Positions 2,469 to 31,869 of a stretch of DNA of 31,869 nucleotides are shown here, piece by piece. Numbering within the stretch: the stretch's first letter is position 1; every line of letters begins with the position of its first letter. Source of the DNA: a virus; IMG/VR virus record IMGVR_UViG_3300045988_093262. One strand, 5' to 3'. The position numbers and the translations under genes are program-made. A model generated the notes under the pieces. That model had not been told where the DNA came from. It made no database searches and saw nothing but the letters and a program-made list of their open reading frames with translations.

Positions 2469-3446
2469 CTAGGCCCCGGTCTTCGGGGTGACGACGATGC
2501 CCTTCAGGTGGCCGGCCTTCAGGGTGTTCTTCAGGGCCACGCCAGCCACAAGCTCGACCTCGCCCTTCTTCACAGCGCCCGGGGCGGTCAGGTCGGGCAT
2601 GTAGGAGTTGATGACGCCGGTGCCAACCGGGGACACGCCGCAGAAGCCGTCAAGGGCCACGTTGATGGCGTAGATGTCGGAGGTACCGGCCTTTGAGGCA
2701 GTGGCGGCGGTGTCGGCGATGACGTCCTTCGTGTTCATGCCGTCGAAGTAGTTGCCGGCGTCAATCAGGGGAATGCCGTTGTAGAGGTCCACGGTGCGGC
2801 CAAAGTCGTCCTTGGTGCGCTCGTAGTAGCCGCAGCGGCGGGCGATGCCACGGAGGCGGGCCAGCATCTTGCGGTTCATGAGCAGCATGGTCGGGGTGCC
2901 GTCCATGGTGGAGAGCCAAGCGTCGAGCTCGTCGAGGAAGGCGTTCTTGTTGGCGTCCATGAGGGCCGCGGTGGAAATGTCCACGGTGGAAGCGACCTCG
3001 GTGGAGGAATCCTTCACAAGCTCGGCGATGCCGTCGAACTTGTCGGTCGCCTTCTTCGCGTTCAGGACGAGGTTGTGGAACTCGTTCGCGGTGGCCTTAA
3101 TCTTCTGCTCGGCCTGGAACGCAAGCTCGTCCACGGCTCCGGAGGTGTTCTGGAGCACGCGGTCGACCTCGAAGGAGCCGCCCATGATGGCGAGCTGGAC
3201 GGTCTTCTCCTCGCGAACCGCGTCGCCAGAGGTGTACTCGGCGTTGATTTCGCGGGTGGCAGCGGTGGAGGGGGTCTTCAGCTGGATGTAGCCGTAGGAG
3301 AGGGTGGAGCCGCCAGTGCCGGGGGCGACTGCGTTGTCGAAAATCAGGTTGTCGAGCAGGTAGGAGGAGCGGCGGAAGGAGTCGATGACCTGCTGGTCTA
3401 CCTTGTCGGCCATGCCGACCTTCGCCTGCGCGAGAGTGATAGCCAT
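2469..3446 (-). CDS. Major capsid protein (HK97 fold)
   Basis: 325 aa. The N-terminus MAITLAQAKVG... and the composition are typical of HK97-like capsid proteins of Gram-positive phages. It follows the scaffold gene. Confidence 0.8.
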   Translation of the reverse strand: MAITLAQAKVGMADKVDQQVIDSFRRSSYLLDNLIFDNAVAPGTGGSTLSYGYIQLKTPSTAATREINAEYTSGDAVREEKTVQLAIMGGSFEVDRVLQNTSGAVDELAFQAEQKIKATANEFHNLVLNAKKATDKFDGIAELVKDSSTEVASTVDISTAALMDANKNAFLDELDAWLSTMDGTPTMLLMNRKMLARLRGIARRCGYYERTKDDFGRTVDLYNGIPLIDAGNYFDGMNTKDVIADTAATASKAGTSDIYAINVALDGFCGVSPVGTGVINSYMPDLTAPGAVKKGEVELVAGVALKNTLKAGHLKGIVVTPKTGA

Positions 3447-3468: not shown

Positions 3469-4005
3469 TTAGTCGTACTTCTGGTGGAGGGCGGCGGCAA
3501 GGTTCTCAGGCTCGGGGTCGCTCGGGTCGGTCGCCGGTGGGGTGTCGACGCGTGCGGTCTTGGTCTTGACCGTCCCGATGAAGTCTGCCCACGTGTCGCG
3601 GATGCTCTCGGAGAGCTTGTCCGCGTCCTCGATTTCGCCGTCCTTGACGCTGACCTCGCTGAGGTCGGTAACGCGCATGATGGAGTCGATGCGGCGCGCG
3701 TCCACGCCCTGCTCAGCGAGAAGCTTGCGATAGAGCTGCGCCTTCTCGGCGTTGGCCTTCTCGGCGTCCACGGACTTCTTGAACTCCGCGAACTCTGCCC
3801 GCTCGGCGTCCAGCTTGCCCCGAAGCTCCTCAATCTCCTTCTTGCCGGCCTCTCCCGCCTTCTCCTCGGCGATGGAGGCGCGGTCGAGCGCGGCGTCCCT
3901 CTCGGCCTTGAGGGCGTCCACGGTGTCGCCGTGGGCCTTCACGATGGACTCGATTGCGTCCTGCTCGATTCCCAAATCCTTCAGCATCTTGATTGTCAGC
4001 GCCAT
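3469..4005 (-). CDS. Scaffolding protein
   Basis: An internal Met (MALTIKMLKDLG...) gives about 178 aa. The protein is highly charged, rich in E, K and A, and coiled-coil-like (EELRGKLDAERAEFAEFKK). It lies immediately upstream of the capsid gene. Confidence 0.7.
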   Translation of the reverse strand: MALTIKMLKDLGIEQDAIESIVKAHGDTVDALKAERDAALDRASIAEEKAGEAGKKEIEELRGKLDAERAEFAEFKKSVDAEKANAEKAQLYRKLLAEQGVDARRIDSIMRVTDLSEVSVKDGEIEDADKLSESIRDTWADFIGTVKTKTARVDTPPATDPSDPEPENLAAALHQKYD

Positions 4006-4094
4006 TGAATCCCTTTCACTCGGGTCTCTTGCCCCATTCCCTCGGGGCGGTCTGAGCGGGCGGTCCCTCGCCCGGTTCAGGCGGATTGTAGCAC

Positions 4095-4463
4095 CTATGC
4101 GGACTCCAAGCATCCCTTGAGTATGGCGCGGTACTCGTCCGCATGGTCGGCTGCGGCGGGTTTCAGGTACGGGTGCGGGTGCCTGCGGCTCGTCCCAAGC
4201 TCAACATACGGGCCGTATTCAACGTTCGTGCCGATGTAGACCGCGTTCTCCTCCGTGTCGATGGCGTTGGTGATTGAGTTCTTCAGGCGGCCCGTCCTCG
4301 TGGGGCAAATCGCCTTGGCGTTGCCCTCGGCCTGCTGCCCAATCATGACGAGGGCCTTTGCGATTGCCTTGTCCATGGCAGCTTGTATCTGCTCGACGTT
4401 GTTCTCCTGCACCTCTACCAAGGTTGACTTGTCCGAGGAGGTGAGGCCGCTGGTGCTATTCAT
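4095..4463 (-). CDS. HK97 gp10-like family protein
   Basis: The motifs PTRTGRLKNSI and VEYGPYVELGT ... HPYLKPA match the HK97 gp10-like family (PvdTGrLrnSi ... YapyvEfGT). Confidence 0.55.
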   Translation of the reverse strand: MNSTSGLTSSDKSTLVEVQENNVEQIQAAMDKAIAKALVMIGQQAEGNAKAICPTRTGRLKNSITNAIDTEENAVYIGTNVEYGPYVELGTSRRHPHPYLKPAAADHADEYRAILKGCLESA

Positions 4464-4665
4464 CCTGAGACTCCCACCTCGGGCAGGGCATCCCGTCATA
4501 GAGCACCCCGGCGGGCTTCCCGATTCCGTCAGAGCGTCTGTACGCGCCGCAATACGCCTTCTCCACCTCGTCGCCCCAGACGGGTTCCATGCCGGCGTGT
4601 CTGCACGTCTCGCAATACTTGGGGTTGGGCCTCTTGACGCCGAACGTCTGCGAAAGGTCGCTCAC
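4456..4665 (-). CDS. Small Cys-rich hypothetical protein (CxxC ... C ... C)
   Basis: 69-aa ORF directly downstream of the MuF-toxin gene. Contains CETC, YCG and CPRW. Confidence 0.4.
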   Translation of the reverse strand: MSDLSQTFGVKRPNPKYCETCRHAGMEPVWGDEVEKAYCGAYRRSDGIGKPAGVLYDGMPCPRWESQDE

Positions 4666-6617
4666 TTCTTTGCCTCCTGTTGAAAAAGGTCGTAGCCGTC
4701 CTCAGGGTGGAGTTCCATGTCGATGTAATACTTCCCACCCTGGTGCTCAATCTTAGTCACCTTGTAGGAGCCACCCCTCTGGAGGATGACCTCGAACTCG
4801 AGACCGAACCACTCTTGTCCGCTCTTGCCGTCCCACTCCAGTCCGTCGCAACCTCCATATGCGGAAAACGGCTCGGCATAGATGGCGTTGGAGCCTGCCG
4901 GGGCGTAGATGTTGATTATCACGGGCTTTCTGGCGAAGCCGTCTCCCTTCGCTGCGCTCGTGGACCAGAAGCCTCCAACCCTTCCGGAACTTCCGACAAG
5001 CTTTTGCAGCTCGTCGTCCGATAGGCTCGCGAATCCGCCGTCCTCGAGGCCGAAGAACGTGTCCATTGCGTCCGTGCCGGAACCGCGATTGAGCCACATG
5101 TCGTGCTCGTAGCTGCTCTTAGCGATGGCCTCCGTCATCTGTCGGATTTTCATCCCGTAGTGGCGAGAGTCGATGTTCACGTTTCCCGGACCCACGTAGT
5201 TCTCCCGGCCCCACCTGCCGTTCTTGAAGCCGTTCGTGGGCTGGTTCCACTCGTTGGAGTCACTGGTGTAACCGTAGAGGGAACGCTTCTGGTTGGTGGT
5301 CAGAGAGCGCCAAACCTCGCCGGCCTTTGGCCTAAGCTCTGAGTCGGCCTTCTTCTTGTCCTTGAACCACCATGCGGCGTCCTTCCTAGCCTTGGAGAAG
5401 GCGTCTGACGGCTCGGCCCTCGCGATGCCGATCGACTTCCCAAGCTTGTCAAGCTCGGCTTGGAGCCTGTCCACCTCGGAGAGCATGTCTTGGTAGCGCT
5501 TGCCGTACTTCAGGAACCTCTTGGCCTTCGGGCCGTTCGCCTTCTCCGCAAGCTTCTTGTCGTGCTCGAAGCTGTCGAAGGACCACACGAATGGCCAGAA
5601 GTCGTTCTCGTGCGCAGCCTTGAAGTCCATCGCCTTGGACCTGAGCGCGTCAAGCTCGGCGGCCTTCTGGTTGTAGCTGGAAACGGTGGTCTTCCGCTCC
5701 TTGCGCCCCTTCCACTCCTCGAAGCCCTTCCCCTTGAGCGACTTGTCGGCGGCATCGATGAGCGCCTTGGCCTCGGGCATGTCCGCGACCAGCGTGCAGC
5801 GGCAGTTGTAAACCTCCAGCCCCTGTCCGTGGGGGTCTCCCGGAAACGACAGGCCGGGAGCGAACTCGTCATCAATCGGAATCGACACGCCGTTTCTGGC
5901 TGCGTGCTCCGGTCGCGTCTTGGCGTCTCCCGTGGACAGCCACTTCTTCAGGATGACGATTCCAAGCTCCTTGGAGATTTTACGGTAGAAGTCGACCCTC
6001 CCGCCGTTCTCCGCTCCCGTGGTGGCCGTCCTCGCAACCCTGATTGCCGAACCCATGCTCATTCCCGTTGGACCTGCGATACGGTTGGCGATGCCGTCGA
6101 TTGACTCGCCTTGGAGAATCCCCTGAGTGATGGCTGAGCGGACGTGCCGGGAGTTCCAAGCGCTCGACTTGCCCTTCTTGACCTTCGGTGTCGGGTATAG
6201 CTGCGGGTTGTCCCTCATAAGCCGCTCGACGGTCGAGTGGTCGACCAGCTGGAAGCTCGTTCCCAGCCCGGTCCCGCTCTCGACCTCGTAGAGCGCTGCG
6301 TTTGCGTTGAGCGCGTAGACTTCCTCGTTGGACTTTGAGACAATCTTGGCCGCAATCTCCTCGCAAGCCTCCAAGTCGGCCCCGAGGGAGTCGGCCATGT
6401 CAGAAATCCACTGCTGTTTCGCCAGTTGCTCCCTGTTCCACTCCTTGAACTCCTCGGAGCTCAGCGACTTCTTGGCCTTTGCCAGTTCAGACTCGTACTC
6501 CGCTCCGGCCTCCTTGAGCTTGGCTTTCATTTCCGAGTAAGCCTTGGAGTAGGCCGCGTGAATCCTCTTCTCGACGGTTTTCAGCATCTTCTCGGTCTGC
6601 TCGTGCGCCTCGTCCAC
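4662..6617 (-). CDS. MuF/SPP1 gp7-family minor capsid protein fused to a C-terminal C3/VIP2-like mono-ADP-ribosyltransferase toxin domain (MuF polymorphic toxin)
   Basis: The Mu F domain motif is TRPEHAARNG...NCRCT. The C-terminus carries the R-S-E ART signatures: LYGYTSDSNEW (as in YTgSsYqeIN), an Arg, the STS motif FWSTSAA, and the ExE/ARTT motif LEFEVILQRGGSYKV (as in VIP2 EKEVLLDRGSKYKI). GTG start at 6617 with an AAGGGGG ribosome binding site. Confidence 0.85.
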   Translation of the reverse strand: MDEAHEQTEKMLKTVEKRIHAAYSKAYSEMKAKLKEAGAEYESELAKAKKSLSSEEFKEWNREQLAKQQWISDMADSLGADLEACEEIAAKIVSKSNEEVYALNANAALYEVESGTGLGTSFQLVDHSTVERLMRDNPQLYPTPKVKKGKSSAWNSRHVRSAITQGILQGESIDGIANRIAGPTGMSMGSAIRVARTATTGAENGGRVDFYRKISKELGIVILKKWLSTGDAKTRPEHAARNGVSIPIDDEFAPGLSFPGDPHGQGLEVYNCRCTLVADMPEAKALIDAADKSLKGKGFEEWKGRKERKTTVSSYNQKAAELDALRSKAMDFKAAHENDFWPFVWSFDSFEHDKKLAEKANGPKAKRFLKYGKRYQDMLSEVDRLQAELDKLGKSIGIARAEPSDAFSKARKDAAWWFKDKKKADSELRPKAGEVWRSLTTNQKRSLYGYTSDSNEWNQPTNGFKNGRWGRENYVGPGNVNIDSRHYGMKIRQMTEAIAKSSYEHDMWLNRGSGTDAMDTFFGLEDGGFASLSDDELQKLVGSSGRVGGFWSTSAAKGDGFARKPVIINIYAPAGSNAIYAEPFSAYGGCDGLEWDGKSGQEWFGLEFEVILQRGGSYKVTKIEHQGGKYYIDMELHPEDGYDLFQQEAKK

Positions 6618-6688: not shown

Positions 6689-8083
6689 CTATTCGGCAAC
6701 CGCTCCGAAGTCCACCTTGTCGCGCTCCTCCTCCGAGAGCCTGTCCAGAATCCCCTGCACCTCGGAAGGCTCGATGTTCGGCAGCTTCTTCAGGATGGTT
6801 TCATTGTCGAGCCACTGGGCCTCTTGGGCGACAATCTGCGCCTGCTCAAGCTGGTTGGAGATTCTCGTGCGGGTGAAGACCGGCGTGTCCTCGATTCCTA
6901 GCAGGGAGAGCACCCTCTGCACGAACTCCGACACCTGCCACTCGAAGTCAGCCGCGTTCTCGTCCAATGGCTGGTACGCCGCGTCGATATGGTCGTTAGT
7001 TGCTCCAGCCGCGACCGTGTGGACGTCGAGGCCGCCGAAGTCCTCGTAGATTCCGGCCCTGATGCCGTCGAGGTACTGCTGGCGTGCCTGATACGGGACC
7101 TCTTGGACGTAGGGATTCACCGCTCCTCCGTCCGTGGTGTCGGCCTCGACGATGTGCTGGAATATCAGCTTGTCGCGGAACTTGGCGAGGTCGGCGTCAC
7201 TCATGCCCCCGCGGTTCTCGACAATCCAGTAGATTTGCGCGCAATCGGCGAGGTCGTTCGCGAATCCTGAGCGGATGAGGTCGTAGGAGTCGATGGAGCG
7301 CTCCATGCCAATCAACGTGGACTGGTGGAGCTTGGAACCCCAGAGCGGGACGATTGGGAGGGTGCCGTAGTTCTCCTCGCCGACCAGCGCGTCCTCTCCG
7401 TTCGGGTAGGTGACGACGGTTTGGACGTAGGCCCGCTTCTCCTCGGAGGTGACGAGGGAGGCGTGACTCAGGTCCACGTTGTCGGCAACGAATCGGGTAT
7501 AACCGTCCTCCTCGTACAAGACGCACGTCATTGGACGGTTTGGGGCGATTCTCCAGAAGCGGACTCCCGCCCTCAGGGTTCCGTTGTGCTCGTCCCAGAG
7601 CGGCACGAACTCCGTGAGCGGGAAGTCGTATAGGTGCTCCCCGTTCCAGAAGCCGAAGCTCACGCCGTGGATTAAGGCGTTGTATGCGACGGTCTGGAGG
7701 TCGTGGCCGAAGTGGGGTCCCAGCGCCTTCTTGGTGCCCTCGTCGTCCTTGGAGAACGACACGCCCTTGCCCAGCGAGTATTGACAGCGCTGAGTGTTGA
7801 GCCGGTGGAAGAGGTTGCACGCAATCCTGCTGTTGCTCGCTGTGGGGTCCGCCACCTTCTCGCCGGATGCGGAGTAAATCCACCTCCGGACCTCGTTGAT
7901 GGTCACGTTCATCTGATGGTCGTAGAGGTCGGCCCTCTGGGCGGTCTGAACGGCGTCTGACGCCATGTGAAGCCTCACCGCATCGAGGCAGAACTGCGGC
8001 TTGTCTGACGCCTGCGCGAAGTCCTGATACGTCATCAGCCTTGCGCCGCTTTCCTTGATGTGACCAGTGGCCTTTTGGTTCAT
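6689..8083 (-). CDS. Portal protein (SPP1-type)
   Basis: 464 aa between the large terminase and MuF. Acidic C-terminus. Typical portal size and position. Confidence 0.75.
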   Translation of the reverse strand: MNQKATGHIKESGARLMTYQDFAQASDKPQFCLDAVRLHMASDAVQTAQRADLYDHQMNVTINEVRRWIYSASGEKVADPTASNSRIACNLFHRLNTQRCQYSLGKGVSFSKDDEGTKKALGPHFGHDLQTVAYNALIHGVSFGFWNGEHLYDFPLTEFVPLWDEHNGTLRAGVRFWRIAPNRPMTCVLYEEDGYTRFVADNVDLSHASLVTSEEKRAYVQTVVTYPNGEDALVGEENYGTLPIVPLWGSKLHQSTLIGMERSIDSYDLIRSGFANDLADCAQIYWIVENRGGMSDADLAKFRDKLIFQHIVEADTTDGGAVNPYVQEVPYQARQQYLDGIRAGIYEDFGGLDVHTVAAGATNDHIDAAYQPLDENAADFEWQVSEFVQRVLSLLGIEDTPVFTRTRISNQLEQAQIVAQEAQWLDNETILKKLPNIEPSEVQGILDRLSEEERDKVDFGAVAE

Positions 8084-9294
8084 TGGTAGGTCCTCCCGTC
8101 AAGAACGGATTTGTAGGGCTTTTCGCGATTGTAGACCCGCATGGTCTTGACGAAGTACCGCATGGCGTCCATGGCGTGGTCCGCCACCTTCACGGGCCTG
8201 TCCTCCTCGCCTCTGGAGTCCCAGACGTAACCTCCGAACTCCTCGGAGACTTCCTCGAGGTCGTCGGCAACCCTGATGGCCCCCGTCCTCATGGACCCCA
8301 TGGTCATTCGTATGCCGTCAAGAACCGCGTTGTCGGCTGGTGTGACTCTTGCGCCCCTACCCCTCAGCTCGGCGATGAACGAGGCAGCCGAGGGGTCGAC
8401 TATGAACCGCTCGGCCTTTGGCGCAAGCCTCATTACATCGTCGGCGTGCTCGGCGTCCGTGCGGTTCCTGCCCGTGTCTCGTCCCGAGTAGTAGTAGCAC
8501 CCCACGCAATGCCAGACGCCCTCGTGGTCGAGAACCCACCTAAGGGCTGCTGTGGCGTTGAGGGTGCCGTAGTCCACGCTGACCACTTCCCGCTCAGCCG
8601 CTCCGGTGTACCTAGGCTCAAGACACTTCTGCCAGTCCGGGTAGACCAGCCCCTCGGCTTGGGTCCAAAGCCCCTTGATGTATCGGTCGTAGCAGACGGT
8701 CCCGGCGTATTCCTCCTTGAGGGAGGCCACGAAGCCCTTGTCCAAGAAGGGGTTGTCGTCGATGGTGTACCTCTGGCGGTATATGTCGCCGTCCGAGTCG
8801 AGGAACCTCTTGAGCCAGTGTCTTGGGCCTGCCGGGTTGCACGCCGCGTGACACTCCGAGTAGGGGAATGACAGTCGGCTTTTAAGCATGTCGAAGACGT
8901 CCTCGGAGAGCGCGGCCAGCTCGTCGCAGTAGCAGAACTTCACTGCGGCTCCTTGGAGCTTGACCACCTGAGAGCGCTTCTCAGCTCCGAGGCAGTACAC
9001 GCGTTCGCCGAAAAGCTCGACCGTGTTCTCCGAACCCCTGATTTCCCCCACAAGCTCGTCCCCGAAGGTGTCCCTCATGGGTTGGAGCACGTTCCTCTCG
9101 ATGTTGCCCAACGACACGCCCAGAATCAGGTCGATGCCCTGAAGGCCAGAGAGGCCGATTACCCGGTCCGGTATCGTGAAGTTGCACGCAAGCCAAGACT
9201 TTCCGGAGCGCACTGCCCCCTCGCAGACGTTCCAACGGTGGTGGGCCTCCCGGACGTTCTCGGCCTGCTTTTGGCTAAGCTCCATCCTTGGCAC
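8080..9294 (-). CDS. terL: Terminase large subunit
   Basis: 404 aa. Walker A GAVRSGKS near the N-terminus and a nuclease-domain acidic residue pattern. Overlaps TerS by 20 nt. Confidence 0.85.
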   Translation of the reverse strand: MPRMELSQKQAENVREAHHRWNVCEGAVRSGKSWLACNFTIPDRVIGLSGLQGIDLILGVSLGNIERNVLQPMRDTFGDELVGEIRGSENTVELFGERVYCLGAEKRSQVVKLQGAAVKFCYCDELAALSEDVFDMLKSRLSFPYSECHAACNPAGPRHWLKRFLDSDGDIYRQRYTIDDNPFLDKGFVASLKEEYAGTVCYDRYIKGLWTQAEGLVYPDWQKCLEPRYTGAAEREVVSVDYGTLNATAALRWVLDHEGVWHCVGCYYYSGRDTGRNRTDAEHADDVMRLAPKAERFIVDPSAASFIAELRGRGARVTPADNAVLDGIRMTMGSMRTGAIRVADDLEEVSEEFGGYVWDSRGEEDRPVKVADHAMDAMRYFVKTMRVYNREKPYKSVLDGRTYQ

Positions 9295-9670
9295 CCTCAG
9301 CGGCGACTGTTACGGACTTCATAAGCTCCCTGACGGCATCCAGCGTCTTCTCGTCCTTCTCCGGGAGCCTCTGGCACCTTCCGTATTCCTGCGGGTAGGC
9401 CCTCTCCAGATACCATGCGGACGCCTGCCAACTCCCCTCTCTGGCGGCGTTGACGACGTTCTGGAGGTGGTATGCCTTGCGCATGGCCTTTGCCTTGGTG
9501 ACCTCCTCGGCCAGCTTCCTCTTGAGCGGGGTGTCTCCCGCCTTCATCCACCCGTACCAAGACGACCGGTGTATCCCGAGCGCGTCGCAGACGTCGGCGT
9601 CGTTGAGGCCGGTCTGCACCAGCCTCACGGCCTCCCTGATTAGCTCTTCGTCGAGCTTGCTTCTAGCCAA
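9275..9670 (-). CDS. terS: Terminase small subunit (HTH)
   Basis: 131 aa. The HTH GIHRSSWYGWMK is typical of TerS. TTG start with an AGGGAGGG ribosome binding site. Confidence 0.65.
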   Translation of the reverse strand: MARSKLDEELIREAVRLVQTGLNDADVCDALGIHRSSWYGWMKAGDTPLKRKLAEEVTKAKAMRKAYHLQNVVNAAREGSWQASAWYLERAYPQEYGRCQRLPEKDEKTLDAVRELMKSVTVAAEGAKDGA

Positions 9671-9680
9671 AGTCTTCCCT

Positions 9681-9716
9681 CCCTAAAAGAAAGGGAGGCA
9701 CAGCGTGATGCCTCCC
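9681..9716 (-). terminator. Rho-independent terminator between yhhQ and terS
   Basis: Minus strand reads GGGAGGCA-ucacgcug-UGCCUCCC, followed by UUUCUUUU. Confidence 0.6.
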
Positions 9717-9744: not shown

Positions 9745-10392
9745 CTAGGCGAGAGTCTTAGCCCACCCGATGACGCGCTTGGTGATGACGTTGAATATCA
9801 CGACCTCGGCGAGGACCTTGAAGAGGTAGGTCAGCACGATGTTCTCGATGTTGCTCATGAACGAATAGGAAGCTCCGTAGGCGATGGCCGTAAAGACCGC
9901 CGTGTCCACCACGTCGCCGAAGACGGTGGACAGGATGCACCGCTTGAACAGGGAGGTCTCTCCGTCCCTCACCTTAAGCACGGACATCACCTTGTCGTTC
10001 ACCCAAGTCCCGCACATGTAGGCGACCATGGAGGCGAGAACCATTAGGGGGGCCATGCTGAAGATTGTCGCGAACTCCCCCTGAATCTCGAACTGTGGGT
10101 CAGGCGGGAGGGACACGCAGGCGTTCAGGAGGAGGACAGAGCAAACGTTGCAAATCATCGCCCATCGACGCATCTTGAGGGACGTCCTGAACCCGTACAC
10201 CTCAACGCAAAGGTCGGAAATCACGTAGTCTACTACGATGGTTGAGATTCCCAGCGCGAGCGTCATTCCGAAGAAGTCAATGTTCTTGATTGTGCATAGG
10301 TTCGCCGTTATGAGGCCCGCGCTCGATATTGCGAAGAGAATTACCAGAAGCTCGTTTTTGGTTTTCGGCAGCTTGGACTTGATGAAACCCAT
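9745..10392 (-). CDS. yhhQ: YhhQ/Vut-family queuosine-precursor (preQ0/preQ1) transporter
   Basis: 215 aa with multiple transmembrane segments. Motifs TVFGDVVDTAVFTAIAY, ASMVAYMCGTW and LTYLFKVLAEVVIF align with E. coli YhhQ (TLFGNVSDTLAFFFIAF, ASFMAYALGQ, VDYCFKVLISIVFF). Confidence 0.8.
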   Translation of the reverse strand: MGFIKSKLPKTKNELLVILFAISSAGLITANLCTIKNIDFFGMTLALGISTIVVDYVISDLCVEVYGFRTSLKMRRWAMICNVCSVLLLNACVSLPPDPQFEIQGEFATIFSMAPLMVLASMVAYMCGTWVNDKVMSVLKVRDGETSLFKRCILSTVFGDVVDTAVFTAIAYGASYSFMSNIENIVLTYLFKVLAEVVIFNVITKRVIGWAKTLA

Positions 10393-10405
10393 CTGTTTCC
10401 TTCCG

Positions 10406-11200
10406 CTAGTTTTTTAGGGGGGCGGTCTCGAACCCCTCGTTCACGCTCCTCCATTTTACATACAGACGCTTCTGGATGTCCATATACCTCTCGTAGCTGT
10501 CTATGAACTGTTCGACATAATCCTCCTTGCACTTGGGCCTCGGGTACCTCCCGCCGTCCAGCCTCCGTCCGAACGACACGCAATGCCCCCAGCTGGAGGC
10601 GTCCGCATAGTCAAACGGGACCTTCTCGAGCACCTTGGTCCTCGCCATTCCGAGGCAGTGGATTCTCGTCCCATGAGACCGCGCGTACTTCAGGAACATC
10701 GCGTATTGCTCGTCCCTGATGTCCTCGTTGCGGAAACCCGTCACTGCCGCCACGTGGCCCGACATTTCCCGGCACATTGCCTTGAACTCCTCGACTCCTC
10801 GGTTCTTGTGCCAGACGGGGATTATCTTCTCTGGGACGCCGCTCTCGGAGCGGAGAATCTGCCTAAGCCTGAGAACGTTTTCGTAGCCGATTATGTTATC
10901 GACGTCCATTTCGAAGTAGCCGACCACGTTGGGCCTGTCGAACTCCATGATGAACCTTGCATACTCGTGGGTATAGCTCTCCCAGTCCACGTGGACGCCC
11001 TTCTGGAAGCTGTGCGCACCGCTGTCAATCATTATCAGCTCTGAGCTGTCCCTCACCCTCTCGGCGAAGCCCTTGGGCTTCTTCCGCAGGTAGAAGTAGC
11101 TCATGAGGTTCCAAAGCATCTTGATGTTGCGGCGCTCCATTTCGTCGAGCATGCCCTCGGCGTATCCGCTCACCTCGATTGCGCTAAGGAACAGCCTCAT
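10406..11200 (-). CDS. dpdA: TGT-superfamily DpdA-like 7-deazaguanine DNA transglycosylase
   Basis: About 264 aa from ATG 11200, with an ATGA overlap onto the upstream stop codon. It has a TGT-like IMIDSGAHSF (DSG catalytic-Asp motif) and a second acidic motif FDYADAS. It sits next to yhhQ. Confidence 0.55.
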   Translation of the reverse strand: MRLFLSAIEVSGYAEGMLDEMERRNIKMLWNLMSYFYLRKKPKGFAERVRDSSELIMIDSGAHSFQKGVHVDWESYTHEYARFIMEFDRPNVVGYFEMDVDNIIGYENVLRLRQILRSESGVPEKIIPVWHKNRGVEEFKAMCREMSGHVAAVTGFRNEDIRDEQYAMFLKYARSHGTRIHCLGMARTKVLEKVPFDYADASSWGHCVSFGRRLDGGRYPRPKCKEDYVEQFIDSYERYMDIQKRLYVKWRSVNEGFETAPLKN

Positions 11201-11742
11201 TCGCTGACCTTCTTGAAGTGGATTTTGCGGTCCACGCACCCGCACTTCGGACACTTGAGCATTTCGTGCTCAGGCTCGTCGTAGCTCTCTTCCGATAGGT
11301 CGGGGATGGAATCCCAGTCCATTTCCCCGCTCACGTCAAACCCGAAGTCCGTGGCGTCGAACTCGCCGGACAGTGCGTCCAGCTCGTATGTGAGGGCGTC
11401 CATGTCCCAGCCCGTCATCATGGTGGTCTGGTTGTCCGCGAGCGTCAGCATTCTGCGCTGTGCGTCGCTCAGGTCGTCAACGAACACGACCGGTACCGTG
11501 TCCATCCCAAGTTTCTCGGCAGCCGCAGCCCTGCCATGGCCCGCGACAATCTCGGGGATGCCGTCGTCATCGTGCCATGCCAGTATCGGGTTTCGGAATC
11601 CGAACTCCTCGATAGATTTGGCGATGGCCTCGACGTTGCGGTTGTCGTGCTTCTTCGCGTTCCCGTCATATGCCTTGAGGCTCGCAAGAGGAACCTGCTC
11701 GACCTTGACCTCAACCTTTCTGACTGTCAAATCTCTCTCCAA
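11197..11742 (-). CDS. ParB/Srx-like nuclease-domain protein with a C-terminal zinc ribbon; possible DpdB-like partner
   Basis: The ParB N-terminal domain is KAYDGNAKKHDNRNVEAIAKSIEEFGFRNPILAW...IVAGHGRAAAAEKLG. The zinc ribbon is CPKCGC. Translationally coupled to dpdA through an ATGA overlap. Confidence 0.6.
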   Translation of the reverse strand: MERDLTVRKVEVKVEQVPLASLKAYDGNAKKHDNRNVEAIAKSIEEFGFRNPILAWHDDDGIPEIVAGHGRAAAAEKLGMDTVPVVFVDDLSDAQRRMLTLADNQTTMMTGWDMDALTYELDALSGEFDATDFGFDVSGEMDWDSIPDLSEESYDEPEHEMLKCPKCGCVDRKIHFKKVSE

Positions 11743-11756
11743 TCTCCGGTCTTCGG

Positions 11757-12548
11757 CTAGGACTTCTTCAGGATTGAGACAATCGTTCCAATCCTTCTCT
11801 CGGCCTTGTCCAGAACGCGGTCGATTATCTCACGTCCTCGAATCTCTGAAAGCCACTCTTCGTTGACTCCACCGTAGAAGATTGCCGCCAAGGCCCCAGC
11901 CACGCAGGCGTTCGTGTCCGTGTCCCCTCCGAGGTTCACGGCGTTTAGCACGGCGTCATCGAAAGACTCCGAACTCTCGAGTGCCCAGAGCGCGGCGTCC
12001 ACCGTGTCCCAGCAGTAGCCGCCGGCAACCTCGGGGCACTTCGTTGGAAAGTCTGCCATTTCGCCGTATTCCATTCTTTCTGTGAAGTCATACAGGAAGC
12101 CGCAGGCACCCATGCTCTCCGGGCTTCCGTGCGTCGCTCCGAGAGACCTCATAGCCTCGCCCCTATAGACCGGGAGTATCGCCAACGGGACGCAGCGCAT
12201 GACGGCACCGTTTCCGGAGTCCAGACGGTGGCACTGAGGCTTGCCCGTGTCTATGGCCCTAGCGGTTGTCATTCCCACGTCAAATATTCCGTCGACCGTG
12301 TATTCCTCGTCGTGGAGCCAGCGGCGGAAGTAGGACATGACGTCCTCTAGGCTCCCGGTGTCCGCCCAACAATCAAGCTCGGCAAGAATCATTGAGGTAT
12401 CGTCGCTCCAAGTGCCGGCGGGCTTGTTGTGGGAGCCGTAGCCCGTCATCCCGTGGCACTCGAAGCTACCGCGGGGCCTGAACTCATAGGGCACCCCCAT
12501 CGCGTCGCCGATGGCCGCCCCGTAGACGCATTGTCTCAGAAATCCCAT
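11757..12548 (-). CDS. ADP-ribosylglycohydrolase (DraG/ARH family)
   Basis: Motifs GAAIGDAMGVPYEF, AGTWSDDTSM and NLGGDTDTNACVAGALAAI (the GGDTDT signature). A strong AAAGGAGAGG ribosome binding site lies upstream of ATG 12548. The ORF is open in frame up to 12632. Confidence 0.8.
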   Translation of the reverse strand: MGFLRQCVYGAAIGDAMGVPYEFRPRGSFECHGMTGYGSHNKPAGTWSDDTSMILAELDCWADTGSLEDVMSYFRRWLHDEEYTVDGIFDVGMTTARAIDTGKPQCHRLDSGNGAVMRCVPLAILPVYRGEAMRSLGATHGSPESMGACGFLYDFTERMEYGEMADFPTKCPEVAGGYCWDTVDAALWALESSESFDDAVLNAVNLGGDTDTNACVAGALAAIFYGGVNEEWLSEIRGREIIDRVLDKAERRIGTIVSILKKS

Positions 12549-12647
12549 TCCTAGCCCCTCTCCTTTCGCAGTTCGAACTTGATGAAGTCTTGGACGTACT
12601 CCAAAAGCGCCTCCATGCGCTCGGGCAACCACTCGAAGATGTTCTCG

Positions 12648-13294: not shown

Positions 13295-13311
13295 TGACCT
13301 CTCCTCTCCTG

Positions 13312-13369
13312 CCGGGGGCCTCTCCCCCTCGTTGGTTAATATCTTACCACAACTATTAAGCGATTACAA
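13312..13369 (-). promoter_or_regulatory. Conserved promoter cassette, copy 1
   Basis: Minus strand has -35 TTGTAA, 17 nt, then the extended -10 TGGTAAGAT. A hairpin GGGGGAGAGGCCCCC and a GGAGAGGAGAGG ribosome binding site follow. Confidence 0.55.
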
Positions 13370-13930: not shown

Positions 13931-14006
13931 TGGTGCGCGGGGCGGGACTCGAACCCGCAGCCTGCTGCTTAGGAGGCAGCCGCTCTGTCCGTTGGGCTAC
14001 CCGCGC
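13931..14006 (-). tRNA. tRNA-Arg (anticodon CCU)
   Basis: 76 nt read on the minus strand. Acceptor stem GCGCGGG/CCCGCGC. Anticodon stem GCTGC/GCAGC with loop CUCCUAA, giving anticodon CCT. T arm GCGGG-TTCGAGT-CCCGC. Discriminator A followed by CCA. Confidence 0.8.
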
Positions 14007-15027: not shown

Positions 15028-15044
15028 TTCGAACTCCCTTCCTA

Positions 15045-15087
15045 CTTGGGTGCCCCTTGCCCCCTCGTTGGTTAACATGTTACCACA
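15045..15087 (-). promoter_or_regulatory. Conserved promoter cassette, copy 2
   Basis: TTCTCGG lies about 22 nt upstream of TGGTAACAT. A G-rich element GAGGGGGCAAGGGGCACCC and a GGAAGGGAG ribosome binding site follow, then ATG 15027. Confidence 0.5.
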
Positions 15088-15125
15088 CTTGGAGGCTTGG
15101 GGCACCGAGAAACTTTGGAATTTTC

Positions 15126-15909: not shown

Positions 15910-15926
15910 CTTGGTTCCCTTCTCTA

Positions 15927-15990
15927 CTTGGGGGGCCTCTCCCCCCTCGTTGGCTTATATATTACCACTACCGCGAGAAAAACAACCGAG
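15927..15990 (-). promoter_or_regulatory. Conserved promoter cassette, copy 3
   Basis: TTCTCGG, then TTGTTT, then TGGTAATAT. The hairpin GGGGGGAGAGGCCCCCC and an AGAAGGGAA ribosome binding site follow, then ATG 15909. Confidence 0.55.
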
Positions 15991-19971: not shown

Positions 19972-19990
19972 GGTCTTTCCCCTTCTCCTA

Positions 19991-20060
19991 CCGGGGGGCC
20001 TCCCCCCTCGTTGTCTAATATATTACTACTATCCAGTTCGAAGTAAACCGAGAATCTCAG
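19991..20060 (-). promoter_or_regulatory. Conserved promoter cassette, copy 4
   Basis: TTCTCGG, then TTTACT, then AGTAATATAT. The hairpin GGGGGGAGGCCCCCC and a GGAGAAGGGG ribosome binding site follow, then ATG 19971. Confidence 0.5.
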
Positions 20061-21872: not shown

Positions 21873-22130
21873 TTATAGACCATTCTTGTGGAAGTCAAAA
21901 GGGCTTTGGGTGGAATCCTCGACCCCGAGTAGCCATGCGGCCCCGAACTCGGGGAACGCTTCGCTGAGGCGGATGGCCTGCCATGCCGACAGTCTGTAGT
22001 CGCCCTTCTTGAGGTGTGACATGGTCGGGGCTGATATCGCGGTCTCCCTCTCCACCTCAGAGGGGGAATGGACTGTGAGGAACGCGGCAATCCGCGCGGA
22101 AACCAACCTTCTGTGCTCAATCTCGTTCAT
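21873..22130 (-). CDS. XRE/Cro-like HTH transcriptional regulator
   Basis: ETAISAPTMSHLKKGDYRLSAWQAIRLSEAF is an HTH. The gene lies immediately upstream of the promoter and its inverted repeat. Confidence 0.6.
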   Translation of the reverse strand: MNEIEHRRLVSARIAAFLTVHSPSEVERETAISAPTMSHLKKGDYRLSAWQAIRLSEAFPEFGAAWLLGVEDSTQSPFDFHKNGL

Positions 22131-22398
22131 CGCTCTTCTCCTCTCCCATCGGCCTAACCTTGTCCAGTGCGAGGAGCCATGCGGCTGACACGCCGTGACG
22201 CTCTTGGAGCACGAGGGCCATGTCCAGCGTCACGCGGTCGAAGCCGTTCAAGACCCCGTAAATCTTGGAGGACGAGCAGCCGAACGCCTCTGCCGCCTTC
22301 GTGACGCTCAGGCCGCGCTCCATGAGAACGGCCTCAAGACGCCTGCGAGAGACGCCCTGACGCCTCTCCTCGGCTGAGCACCTACCTATGCACGCCAT
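22117..22398 (-). CDS. XRE-family HTH protein
   Basis: An internal Met (MACIGRC...) defines the gene. The segment LSVTKAAEAFGCSSSKIYGVLNG is an HTH. Confidence 0.5.
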   Translation of the reverse strand: MACIGRCSAEERRQGVSRRRLEAVLMERGLSVTKAAEAFGCSSSKIYGVLNGFDRVTLDMALVLQERHGVSAAWLLALDKVRPMGEEKSDERD

Positions 22399-22400
22399 TG

Positions 22401-22562
22401 TCAGACCTCCTCGATGGTGAGCTGGTAGGTCTGGTCGAATCGGTAGGCGTCCACGGCCTCGGGATTGACGTACATGCGCAGCCAGCCGTCCCCGTCCACG
22501 GCCTCGAACTCCACGAAGACGCCCTTCGGCGTCCTCTTCATGCTCTCGATTCTCCAAGTCAT
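22401..22562 (-). CDS. Hypothetical small protein
   Basis: An internal Met (MTWRIESMKRTPKG...) defines the gene. Confidence 0.3.
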   Translation of the reverse strand: MTWRIESMKRTPKGVFVEFEAVDGDGWLRMYVNPEAVDAYRFDQTYQLTIEEV

Positions 22563-23765: not shown

Positions 23766-23785
23766 TGTCTGCTCCTCTCGGTTTT

Positions 23786-23850
23786 GGGAGGCCCCTTGCT
23801 CCCCCCTTGTTGACTCATATATTACCACCGTTGTTATTTTTTAACAACCG
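23786..23850 (-). promoter_or_regulatory. Conserved promoter cassette, copy 5
   Basis: TTCTCGG, then TTGTTA, a 17-nt spacer, then TGGTAATAT. A hairpin GGGAG..CTCCC and a GAGAGGAG ribosome binding site follow, then ATG 23765. The palindrome GTTGTTATTTTTTAACAAC overlaps the -35 region. Confidence 0.55.
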
Positions 23851-29541: not shown

Positions 29542-31824
29542 TTAGACGCTTGCCGCACGCCTGATTTGGCGCGCGAACTCCTGCACGGCCTCTGCCATGT
29601 CCCCGTCGGTGGAGACGCTGAGGCCGTCTACGTAGAGATTGTAGGTGACCCCTCCAGAGGCTTCCATAGCCGCGCTCTTGTAGGCGCTGGTGTCGTAGTC
29701 CATCGGGGAGACTGTTGCGCTCAGGACAGGCTCTCCGAAAGCGTCGGCCAGCTGTCCGGCCATCGAGGAGACGTAGCCCATGACAGGCTCGAAGCCGCTG
29801 CGAAGGCCCGTGTCGAGGGACTGCATGACCGCAAGGCCGTTCTTGACGAGCAGCTTGCGGTCGTAGGGTAGAGGACCCTTGTGCTGGACAATCCAGTCGC
29901 CGATTCCGCCGACGAAGCTCTTCACGTCTTCGAACTTCTGCTTGAGGCCACTCAGGAAACCACTGATGATGGAGGAGCCGGCGTTCCATAGCAGTCTGCC
30001 GACGTTGCCGATTGCTCTGAGGATGTTTCCGGGCAGGTTTCGCACGAACCTGAGGACACCCTCGATGCCGTTGGAAACGCCCGTCTTGATGTTCTCCCAA
30101 GCACCTACGATGAAGGAGGCGACGCCCGTCCACGTGTTGTGCCAAATCGTCTTAATGTTAAACAGGACGCTCTTGATGGTGTTGGAGACGAAGCTGATGG
30201 CTCCAGAGACGGCACCCTTGATGGAGTTCCAGACCGTTTCGGCGATTCCGAGGATGCCGTTCCAGACGCCGGACCAGTCTCCGTTGACGGCAGCGAGTAC
30301 CACGGAAATAACCTGCTGAATCACGGACATGACGGTCTGGATGACCGAGGAGATTACCCCGAAGACGGTCTCGGTTACGCTCTGGATTACCGGGAAGACG
30401 GCATTCCAGATTTCCTGAATGAGCGGGAGGGCCGTGGAAACGGTCTCGACGATGGAGGTTATTGCGGGCATGGCGGCCTCAAGGATTGACCCTGCTAGGC
30501 TGACAACGTCCCCGACAATCTGCACGATGAGCGGGACGGCGGCTTGGATGAGGTCGTTGACAGACTGCCAGACGGGGAGGAAGGCGTCGAGCGCGGGTTG
30601 CAGAACGTCAGTGATTGAGGACCCCGTGCCGCTGAACGCCTCGGAGAGCGCCTGCATCACAACGGAAGCCGTGTCGATTGCTGGTTGCAGGTACTCGGAG
30701 AACGTGCCGGACAGGCTGGAGGCCGCCTCGATGATTGAGTCAAGCATCTGGACAACCGGGTTGTCCTCGCCAAGCGACGCCCTGAGGGATTCCATTGCGG
30801 TCGTTCCGATGGTGCCCATTGCCTCGGAGAAAACAGGGCCAATTCCGGTGAGCATCGATGGAAGCTCACCGATGAGGGTGCCGACAATCTCGCCAACTCT
30901 GGGAACGATGTTGGACGCGGCTATAACAGCCGAGTCAACAAGCTGCCCGGTGAGGGCCGATATGTCTGCCGTGTCGCTTCCGAGTCCGACCAGCCAGTTG
31001 TCCCACGCCGCCTTCATGGATGAGACGGAACCCTCGATGGTGGTGGAAGCCTCTCGGGCCGTGGTGCCGCCAATCTGCATGCTTTCTTGCATGACGTGTA
31101 TGGCCGCTACGATGTTGTCGAAGCTCATGGACGAGGAGTCGACCGTGACTCCCAGCTTCTGCTGGACGTCAGTCATCTCGGAGGCGTCAGCAATCAGCCG
31201 CTGCATCTCCTGCTGCGTGCCGCCGTAGCCAAGCTTCAAGTTGTCAAGCATCGTATAGTTCTGCTTGGCGAAGCCCTGATATGCGTTCTGAATGTCTCCG
31301 ATGGCGGTTCCGAAGGTGTTGGCGTTGTCGGACATATCCGTCATTGCAATGTCTGCATAATCGGCAGCCTTCACCGTGTCTCCTCCGAGGGAGGAAATCA
31401 GGGCCGCGGAGAAGCTGGTTACTTGCTCCATGTAGGCGTTGGCAGACAGACCAGCCGTCTTGTAGGCGTTCTGGGCGTTTGCGAGGACCTTGTTCTGGGA
31501 GTCCTCCAGCGTCTGCCATTTGTCGCCAATCTCTGCCGTGCTCTGGCCGGTGAGGGCGGCGTATTCCTCGACGCTCTTGCCCATGTTGCCGAAGAGCTTC
31601 TGAATGCCGCCGACATTCTGCTCGTAGGAGGAATAGGCGTCGAGGGCCTGCTTGGCTATGACTCCGGTGGCACCAACGGCAGCCGAACCGACAGCCGCGA
31701 AGGCAGCGGCTCCAACCTTGGCGATTCCACCGACGGTGCCGGTGATGCCGGACGCGATTGAGCCAATCCTCCCAGATGCTTGGTCGTCCACTCCAATCTT
31801 GACCATGAGGTCCAGAAGATTCAT
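29542..31824 (-). CDS. Tape measure protein
   Basis: 760 aa. Low-complexity A/G/S/T-rich N-terminus and a long helical body. Follows G/GT across the window junction. Its start codon is duplicated at window position 96. Confidence 0.85.
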   Translation of the reverse strand: MNLLDLMVKIGVDDQASGRIGSIASGITGTVGGIAKVGAAAFAAVGSAAVGATGVIAKQALDAYSSYEQNVGGIQKLFGNMGKSVEEYAALTGQSTAEIGDKWQTLEDSQNKVLANAQNAYKTAGLSANAYMEQVTSFSAALISSLGGDTVKAADYADIAMTDMSDNANTFGTAIGDIQNAYQGFAKQNYTMLDNLKLGYGGTQQEMQRLIADASEMTDVQQKLGVTVDSSSMSFDNIVAAIHVMQESMQIGGTTAREASTTIEGSVSSMKAAWDNWLVGLGSDTADISALTGQLVDSAVIAASNIVPRVGEIVGTLIGELPSMLTGIGPVFSEAMGTIGTTAMESLRASLGEDNPVVQMLDSIIEAASSLSGTFSEYLQPAIDTASVVMQALSEAFSGTGSSITDVLQPALDAFLPVWQSVNDLIQAAVPLIVQIVGDVVSLAGSILEAAMPAITSIVETVSTALPLIQEIWNAVFPVIQSVTETVFGVISSVIQTVMSVIQQVISVVLAAVNGDWSGVWNGILGIAETVWNSIKGAVSGAISFVSNTIKSVLFNIKTIWHNTWTGVASFIVGAWENIKTGVSNGIEGVLRFVRNLPGNILRAIGNVGRLLWNAGSSIISGFLSGLKQKFEDVKSFVGGIGDWIVQHKGPLPYDRKLLVKNGLAVMQSLDTGLRSGFEPVMGYVSSMAGQLADAFGEPVLSATVSPMDYDTSAYKSAAMEASGGVTYNLYVDGLSVSTDGDMAEAVQEFARQIRRAASV

Positions 31825-31869
31825 CTAGACCAGCTCCAATCCAGCCGCCTTGATAACGTCGGCGGCAAT

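Follow-up and report, generated by a model that had tools for sequence, protein, structure and literature searches.

MuF polymorphic toxins were defined in 2017 by Jamet et al., who described 191 of them, 14% being ADP-ribosyltransferases; one ADP-ribosyltransferase, EFV from a prophage of Enterococcus faecalis V583, was shown to be active (PMC5576092). The same work put forward the hypothesis that such toxins are injected, and cites gp7 of phage SPP1 as present in 1-2 copies per capsid, complexed with the portal (PMC5576092). Many ADP-ribosyltransferases of the Alt/VIP2 family were later found fused to MuF and are probably packaged in the head (Iyer et al., 2022; PMC9503650). One relative studied by experiment is Bxa. 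Bacteria are harmed by this toxin, arginine is the residue that it modifies, and two proteins, the hydrolase BAH and the binding protein Bsi, neutralise it (Alexei et al., 2024; PMC11699363); the mutation E820A abolishes its toxicity (PMC11699363). Here we describe MuF-ART, a minor head protein with a C-terminal ADP-ribosyltransferase (ART) toxin domain, encoded in the viral DNA of IMG/VR record IMGVR_UViG_3300045988_093262 (the whole stretch of 31,869 nucleotides analysed is called the window below), together with two candidate immunity genes: a small four-cysteine (4-Cys) open reading frame (ORF) directly downstream and an ADP-ribosylglycohydrolase (ARH) gene about 5 kb upstream.

The fusion of a MuF protein to an ADP-ribosyltransferase is an already established architecture (PMC5576092, PMC9503650, PMC11699363) and not a discovery, and specialists in phage toxins or in ADP-ribosylation should find nothing unexpected here. 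Two points are modestly new: the 4-Cys family as a conserved, sometimes fused, partner of the toxin-hydrolase clade, and the presence of a MuF toxin where the complete genome has no integrase that can be recognised. Neither of the two candidate immunity genes was part of the preliminary description of this DNA, which was made from the sequence alone and dealt with the toxin gene. MuF toxins are well described computationally, and few (EFV, Bxa, Apk2) have been studied experimentally. A small complete genome carrying a toxin with the full catalytic set as well as both candidate antidotes would offer a compact model for asking whether MuF toxins are packaged and injected, and what they do on entry.

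The toxin domain of MuF-ART

The MuF-ART reading frame is the one first described (4662-6617, minus strand, 651 amino acids). It is the longest in its region and has a GTG start with an AAGGGGG ribosome-binding site ahead of it. Its 17 homologue clusters at 75-92% identity align over 98-100% of the query; their lengths run from 639 to 660 amino acids, and 14 have exactly 651. All of the motifs quoted in the preliminary description are present, TRPEHAARNG at residue 234, NCRCT at 271, LYGYTSDSNEW at 447, FWSTSAA at 550 and EFEVILQRGGSYKV at 607, and the Pfam comparison that it proposed places both PF03496 and PF04233 above their curated cut-offs.

PF03496 (ADPrib_exo_Tox) matches residues 436-629 (E = 4.2e-15; 56 bits, cut-off 23.4), and the PHROGs family phrog_16625, "Bxa ADP-ribosyl transferase", covers residues 405-636 (E = 6e-25). 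Profile comparison with the PDB gives Lmo0066 (8za7_B) as the best match (6e-16), followed by the C3-type toxins C3stau2 (8e-13), C3lim (8e-11) and C3larvin (4e-10) and by Certhrax, BECa, C3bot, Plx2A, CdtA and VIP2 at E-values from 1.5e-9 to 9.4e-6. For the catalytic residues, residues 420-651 were compared in an alignment with the C-terminal domains of 26 homologues (31-93% identity). Y450, T451, F550, S552, E607 and E609 are among the invariant positions of these 27 sequences, and in the profile alignment the R, S-T and ExE columns of the family fall on the R, SST and QxE of C3stau2. The hallmarks of an R-S-E enzyme claimed earlier for the C-terminal part are thus all there, and the arginine that had been left unspecified is R511, in MWLNRG. 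Only the claim that the loop with the ExE motif, the ADP-ribosylating turn-turn (ARTT) loop, is nearly identical to that of VIP2 and iota toxin fails: the segment on its own has no significant match in the PDB, the best ADP-ribosyltransferase being CdtA at E = 1.3, and the likeness comes down to the short pattern ExE-[VI]-[IL]-L-x-R-G, which aligns with QqEVLLPRG of C3stau2.

The predicted structure agrees with the profile matches. The AlphaFold2 model of the toxin domain, computed from the alignment, has a mean predicted local distance difference test score (pLDDT) of 93.5 and a predicted template-modelling score (pTM) of 0.91, and takes the ADP-ribosyltransferase fold, with an N-terminal helical region and a beta-sandwich core. 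Foldseek finds 141 matches to it in the PDB at E <= 0.001, and the best 50 are without exception ADP-ribosyltransferase toxins. At the top are 8za7_B (9.5e-13), C3bot, Plx2A, C3larvin, VIP2 and CDTa, with a probability of 1.0 and E-values around 1e-12; TM-scores to C3bot, Plx2A, C3larvin, VIP2 and CDTa, normalised by the query, are 0.58-0.69. An "RNA polymerase ADP-ribosylase" of an Aeromonas phage is also among the fold matches (E = 2e-7). The two findings named beforehand as speaking against the assignment, a lack of profile matches and a wrong fold, were both looked for, and neither was obtained. On this evidence we are very confident that MuF-ART is an active-type R-S-E ADP-ribosyltransferase fused to MuF.

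The predicted target residue is arginine, because the ExE form of the loop, the Tri1/DraG-type hydrolase partner (see below) and the modification of arginine by the homologue Bxa all point the same way.

Arg511 itself is found in 23 of the 27 toxin domains, the four divergent members having Ser or Thr at this position. In these four, WLQSGQ or WVQTAQ replaces the sequence around the catalytic Arg and an insert of about 25 residues before ExE is gone, with ExE kept; NAD binding or chemistry may be altered in this group, which is possibly a subfamily of its own.

The MuF carrier

At the other end of the protein, PF04233 (Phage_Mu_F) matches residues 158-276 with E = 3.4e-13 and 50.8 bits (cut-off 29.6); TIGR01641 (phageSPP1_gp7) scores 37.2 bits (E = 2.9e-9), slightly below its cut-off of 39.65. 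PHROGs families annotated as "minor head protein" and "head morphogenesis" cover residues of about 8-281. The MuF domain is therefore present as first described, but the two thirds of the protein then given to it are too many. Residues of about 290-420, between the carrier and the toxin domain, have no significant family assignment.

The combination of PF03496 with PF04233 recurs in dozens of homologue clusters according to precomputed Pfam annotations, and the carrier is not bound to this one toxin. Relatives of the MuF N-terminus at 40-51% identity end in PF15542 (Ntox50), PF07737 (ATLF), PF06167, PF21814 or PF15887, or have no extension. Among structure models in BFVD, some phage proteins already bear the name "ADP-ribosyltransferase domain and MuF-like fusion protein", and an 871-residue "minor capsid protein" there is 46% identical to our toxin domain, with a query-normalised TM-score of 0.94.

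The toxin-domain proteins of spirochaetes (L013, L025, L030, L034, L037 and other loci of Treponema and spirochaetes) give no match to the MuF profile. At the N-terminus they may have a divergent MuF or another domain, and some of the contigs are truncated.

Two candidate partner genes linked to the toxin domain

The 4-Cys ORF begins within the end of the toxin gene: its GTG start overlaps the TGA of MuF-ART (GTGA), with GGAGG 7 nucleotides upstream. Thirty sequences of the family share the invariant residues C18, C21, C39, K50, P51 and C61 (Cx2C...C...KP...C) at a mean column identity of 35%. A search of 1.84 billion representative proteins (clusters at 50% identity) gives 358 family members at E <= 0.001. 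Of the best 150, 148 were newly returned, and 141 of those do not exceed 110 amino acids; two further representatives (P0337, P0380) are fusions with the hydrolase, of 382-385 amino acids.

The hydrolase gene most likely starts at M29 of its longest ORF (11757-12632). Its best matches in the PDB are Lmo0067 (8za7_A; 8e-32) and Tri1 (6dre/6drh; 9e-28), followed by DraG, and its best NCBIfam models are the ADP-ribosylarginine hydrolase Tri1 (NF041672) and DraG, both below their equivalog cut-offs. The score for the Tri1 model, 107.6 bits, is so far under the cut-off of 490 that ARH is no Tri1 orthologue, although the two proteins share the ARH superfamily (PF03747). Three motifs, GDAMGVPYEF, WSDDTS and GGDTDT, are preserved in full, and the Glu aligned to the catalytic E15 of BAH is kept. 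Toxin domain and ARH each find their best match in one chain of a single solved complex, 8za7.

To see how these genes travel, we took one genome for each GTDB species, searched them with a 10-sequence toxin-domain alignment and looked for the partners nearby with locally built hidden Markov models. The 46 loci obtained come from Clostridia (Lachnospiraceae, Oscillospiraceae and [Clostridium] asparagiforme DSM 15981), Treponema and other spirochaetes, Desulfovibrio and Bacteroidales; a GTDB scan with the full single MuF-ART protein gave no close relative. Of the 45 loci whose sequence extends far enough past the toxin gene, 38 have the 4-Cys ORF immediately after it, and ARH is present in 35 of the 39 that can be evaluated for it. 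The linkage of the three genes is thus conserved across loci, as is the fusion of two of them, and the arrangement differs by host group. Most of the MuF-bearing loci of Clostridia have ARH 3.8-4.8 kb upstream of the toxin gene, before the terminase genes, and the window is likewise arranged (about 5 kb). In spirochaetes the toxin gene, the 4-Cys ORF and ARH adjoin one another in this order. Seven loci of the Desulfovibrio type join the 4-Cys domain (residues of about 16-71) to the N-terminus of ARH (about 79-373) in one protein of about 387 amino acids (for example L026:7039-8202, L031:10659-11819 and L036:10651-11838). Finally, the Bxa-type loci of Bacteroidales (L038, L042 and phage Versailles) have a convergent ARH and no 4-Cys ORF; the 4-Cys profile gave no match in the Bacteroidales loci L038, L042 and L053.

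In three control phages (L054-L056) the head module is shared (portal, MuF, gp10, scaffold) but MuF lacks the toxin domain, and neither the 4-Cys ORF nor ARH occurs. Their MuF proteins end without an extension, in an extension of no known type, and in Ntox50, and the phage with Ntox50 has a different small ORF downstream. It follows that the 4-Cys ORF and ARH track the toxin domain and not the head module. Such co-variation is the behaviour expected of toxin-immunity cassettes, and we read the three genes as a probable toxin with two candidate immunity genes. The linkage across Clostridia, spirochaetes and Desulfovibrio, with the natural fusions, gives the unannotated 4-Cys family a testable function.

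Two other identities were considered for the 4-Cys ORF. A mere head-module gene is rejected, as the ORF is missing where the same portal-MuF-gp10-scaffold module has a MuF without the toxin domain. An equivalent of Bsi or of RS09440, the small ORF directly downstream of bxa, finds no support in the small ORFs of the Bxa-type locus of phage Versailles, to which the 4-Cys ORF has no similarity (the B. stercoris sequences were not compared).

Genome context

The window probably represents a complete circular phage genome of about 31,728 bp. The exact direct repeat of 141 nucleotides at its ends is probably the k=141 assembly overlap (the contig is named k141_). All credible genes are on the minus strand (Table 1), in the order TerS, TerL, portal, MuF-ART, 69-residue ORF, gp10-like protein, scaffold, major capsid protein, connector genes and major tail protein, so MuF-ART sits where SPP1 gp7 canonically does. 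The start of the gp10-like gene overlaps the end of the 4-Cys ORF (ATGAATAG), which shows MuF-ART, the 4-Cys ORF and gp10 to be tightly packed in the late operon.

Table 1. Position of MuF-ART, its candidate partners and other features in the window.
Feature	Position	Strand	Remarks
MuF-ART gene (minor head protein with ADP-ribosyltransferase toxin domain)	4662..6617	-	651 amino acids; ORF, Pfam, PHROGs
Phage_Mu_F / SPP1 gp7 domain, residues 158-276, with TRPEHAARNG and NCRCT	5790..6146	-	PF04233, TIGR01641
C-terminal R-S-E mono-ADP-ribosyltransferase domain, residues 420-651	4665..5360	-	PF03496, PDB profile matches, AlphaFold2, Foldseek
Arg511 codon (MWLNRG), NAD-binding Arg of the R-S-E triad	5085..5087	-	aligned to the Arg of C3stau2
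Ser552-Thr553-Ser554 codons, STS motif (FWSTSAA)	4956..4964	-	aligned to SST of C3stau2 and STS/STT of C3 toxins
Glu607-Phe608-Glu609 codons, ExE of the ARTT loop	4791..4799	-	both Glu kept in all 27 sequences
Four-cysteine ORF, candidate for a non-enzymatic immunity protein or a regulator	4456..4665	-	69 amino acids; overlaps the MuF-ART stop
ADP-ribosylglycohydrolase (ARH), candidate enzymatic immunity protein or eraser	11757..12548	-	263 amino acids; PF03747, E = 1.4e-41
SPP1 gp6-type portal, directly upstream of MuF-ART	6689..8083	-	PF05133, E = 3e-24; phrog_64
HK97 gp10-like protein	4095..4463	-	PF04883, phrog_5
Scaffold	3469-4113	-	
Major capsid protein	2469-3446	-	
TerL	8080-9294	-	
TerS	9275-9670	-	
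Terminator-like hairpin and T-run, between the ARH-ParB-DpdA-YhhQ unit and TerS	9693..9716	-	consensus scan, pattern match only
Vut_1/YhhQ-type transporter	9745-10392	-	PF02592, E = 1e-30
DpdA-like queuine tRNA-ribosyltransferase homologue	10406-11254	-	phrog_887, E = 5e-33
ParB_N-domain protein	11197-11742	-	
tRNA-Arg gene (anticodon CCT)	13931-14006	-	between Rad52-like and SSB genes
Promoter-like repeat, five copies	13305-13352, 15041-15088, 15923-15970, 19984-20031, 23783-23830	-	
HTH (helix-turn-helix) repressor-like gene	22117-22557		
Direct repeat at the window ends	1-141 and 31729-31869		141 nucleotides, exact

The gp10-like gene, of the tail-completion or Neck1 type, lies between MuF and the scaffold, away from the connector genes, and does so in L002, L005, L006 and L054-L056 as well. 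The five copies of the repeat, GTGGTAATATATTA...CAACGAGGGGGG(loop)CCCCCC, are each followed by a GGAG-type ribosome-binding site and an ATG, and no copy stands ahead of TerS and the late operon. The repeat resembles a promoter specific to the phage, extended -10-like and with a hairpin in the 5' leader, at the head of five early or middle transcription units; one copy (13305-13352) lies upstream of the unit that contains the hydrolase gene. The ParB_N, DpdA-like and YhhQ-type genes of that unit (9745-11742) are likely a 7-deazaguanine DNA-modification module, and the relatives L006 and L056 have ParB_N with PF20691 (TAGT) in its place. A tRNA-Arg gene and an HTH repressor-like gene are also present.

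Searched by Megablast with 25 kb of the window, the INPHARED phages gave no match. Identity of the major capsid protein to its counterparts is 64.5% for a human faecal phage contig and about 50% for siphoviruses of C. perfringens, and the endolysin has a CHAP domain. Because of these capsid-protein relatives and the CHAP-domain endolysin, the host is probably among the gut Clostridia; the phage is probably a siphovirus. No integrase, recombinase or divergent lysogeny module is found among the large ORFs of the complete genome. Integrated copies of more distant relatives occur in bacterial chromosomes, for example at about 5.67 Mb in that of [Clostridium] asparagiforme DSM 15981.

Proposed mechanism and alternatives

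We think it probable that MuF-ART is a polymorphic toxin of the MuF family that is packaged in the capsid, injected into the next host, and held in check by two antidotes in the cell that makes it. Residues of about 1-290 would be the head-morphogenesis module; in SPP1, gp7 binds the portal and is found in few copies inside the capsid, and by analogy the MuF/gp7 part would carry the protein into the procapsid through the portal. The linker (about 290-420) would be followed by the toxin domain proper, which is predicted to ADP-ribosylate arginines of its target proteins using NAD+. Since such an enzyme would harm the producing cell, the phage would carry two protective genes: the 4-Cys protein most likely binds and blocks the enzyme, like Bsi or the N-terminal extension of Tri1, and the Tri1/DraG-type ARH would take the modification off, as BAH does for Bxa. 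ARH belongs to an upstream transcription unit and is probably made before the toxin, because the terminator-like sequence splits its unit from the late operon and a promoter-like repeat lies upstream of it, both at the level of sequence patterns. When the virion infects a further cell, the protein most likely exits together with the phage DNA, to modify proteins of the new host in the manner of T4 Alt; packaging and ejection with the DNA are suggested here by the homology to MuF/gp7 and the position of the gene.

Several observations weigh against this interpretation. MuF toxins have been reported only from temperate phages and prophages (PMC5576092), and with no integrase found here the biology may differ. 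RS09440 failed to neutralise Bxa in spite of its place directly downstream of bxa (PMC11699363), so adjacency alone is no proof of immunity. ARH is on the same strand as the toxin gene and lies about 5 kb away from it, and four toxin loci with adequate flanks have no ARH at all. The profile of the 4-Cys family finds nothing in the PDB at E <= 10, nothing meaningful in Pfam, and no match in NCBIfam or PHROGs; the protein has no detectable homology to the Bsi-type ORFs; and its AlphaFold model when predicted alone (47 homologues) is unreliable, with a pLDDT of 46.3 and a pTM of 0.21. With neither a usable model nor a family match, gene linkage and fusion are the whole of the evidence for its proposed role as an inhibitor.

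The relationship to Bxa also opens a different reading of the same genes, in which MuF-ART is an exotoxin or fitness factor that is released at lysis and acts outside the phage host, for example on epithelial proteins of the animal gut, with ARH and the 4-Cys protein protecting the producer until lysis. The toxin domain is homologous to that of Bxa, as seen in the phrog_16625 match and the 36% identity to a Bxa-type protein, and epithelial cells are reported as the target of Bxa once released (PMC11699363), a route that has no place for injection and so tells against our reading too. The habitats would suit it: relatives come from bacteria of the gut, rumen and termite gut, and the nearest phage relatives from human faecal samples. 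We nevertheless consider release at lysis unlikely, for the fusion to a portal-associated head protein is kept across very different hosts, which fits delivery by the virion more easily, and the same MuF scaffold bears other toxin-type ends such as Ntox50, MuF toxin domains being mostly nucleases and other enzymes with cytoplasmic substrates. Neither a signal peptide nor a domain for uptake by eukaryotic cells is evident, though no search aimed at them was made. Virion delivery could also serve competition between bacteria, as in model b of Jamet et al., where virions give a lethal dose of toxin to bacteria without the immunity genes and the phage-carrying cells are protected. Swappable C-terminal toxins with matched downstream ORFs, the killing of E. 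coli by expression of Bxa (PMC11699363) and the existence of prophage relatives in bacterial chromosomes, C. asparagiforme DSM 15981 among them, all fit such a weapon. It is harder to reconcile with a genome that has no recognisable integrase or lysogeny module, with the lack of an evident resident immune population, and with the few copies of MuF per virion expected from SPP1 gp7; a host killed on entry, moreover, would not replicate the phage. We therefore rate it as improbable, behind release at lysis.

A last alternative concerns the chemistry of the toxin domain. Enzymes of the ADP-ribosyltransferase fold that modify DNA exist, as do NADases of this fold (Tne5), and four family members have Ser or Thr for the catalytic Arg. 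MuF-ART could be an NAD glycohydrolase, a modifier of DNA, RNA or small molecules, or a catalytically dead structural appendage instead of a protein-arginine transferase. We find this very improbable: R511, the STS motif and ExE are kept in MuF-ART, both Glu being invariant, the linked hydrolase is of the Tri1/DraG type, whose members act on ADP-ribosyl-arginine in proteins, and the homologue Bxa modifies arginine (PMC11699363). A dead domain is disfavoured in particular, because the conserved immunity genes would then be needless.

Returning to the packaged and injected toxin that we prefer, a more specific version of it may be considered, though we hold it only tentatively and think it rather doubtful. 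The 4-Cys protein would found an undescribed family of partners specific to this clade of ADP-ribosyltransferases, and would form with ARH a split Tri1-like pair of blocker and eraser, fused in Desulfovibrio, adjacent in Treponema and apart here. In an apparently integrase-less phage, injected toxin and early ARH would then mark arginines of host proteins with ADP-ribose and clear them again in a timed, write-then-erase pulse; if true, this would differ from a toxin-immunity pair linked to lysogeny. If the phage is truly non-temperate, it would be an exception to the rule that MuF toxins are confined to temperate phages, a rule that the absence of an integrase here calls into question.

Comparison with described systems

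With the MuF toxins of Jamet et al., the locus shares the N-terminal PF04233, the place in the head module beside the portal, the C-terminal toxin domain, the alternative toxins on related N-termini, and a small ORF of fewer than 150 amino acids directly downstream, here of 69. The 4-Cys family and the hydrolase partner, in contrast, are not described there. T4 Alt shares the concept, being an arginine-specific mono-ADP-ribosyltransferase in the capsid that is delivered with the genome, but is not a MuF fusion; the likeness is one of concept. We know of no hydrolase or small-protein partner described for Alt.

The pairing of an ADP-ribosyltransferase with an antidote has two close parallels outside of phage heads. 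Lmo0066/Lmo0067 of Listeria monocytogenes (8za7, deposited as an "ART-ARH type toxin effector-immunity protein pair") is the best solved match for both partners; the deposited chain of Lmo0066, with 180 residues, is not fused to MuF. A literature search on Lmo0066 and the Listeria pair found nothing relevant. Tre1/Tri1 of Serratia proteamaculans pairs an effector of the type VI secretion system with a bifunctional immunity protein; the vehicle of the toxin here would be the phage capsid. Tri1 combines enzymatic reversal with occlusion of the active site by its N-terminal extension. The 4-Cys-ARH fusion of Desulfovibrio has the same layout, but no sequence likeness to the extension of Tri1, since the alignment starts at position 64 of the model.

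The system of Bxa, from a Bacteroides stercoris prophage, has several features in common with ours: a MuF N-terminus, a middle region, a C-terminal ADP-ribosyltransferase, a phage-encoded hydrolase of the ARH family, and an extra small protein that is likely for immunity. The differences lie in the partners and in details of the toxin. The window has no homologue of the Bsi-type small ORF and has instead the 4-Cys ORF, which the Bacteroidales loci lack. ARH is 26% identical to the hydrolase of Bacteroides phage Versailles and is found about 5 kb upstream on the same strand, whereas the Versailles gene is adjacent and convergent. The STS motif is complete in MuF-ART and is S-C-G in the Bxa-type protein, and the phage of MuF-ART is of the Gram-positive type, unlike that of Bxa. 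The toxin domains themselves are clearly homologous, with 36% identity (E = 2e-37) to the 869-residue Bxa-type protein of Versailles and E609 aligned to Bxa E820, while the N-termini of the two proteins have only the NCRC motif in common. Homologous toxin domains on unrelated N-termini are the pattern of domain exchange that is characteristic of polymorphic toxins.

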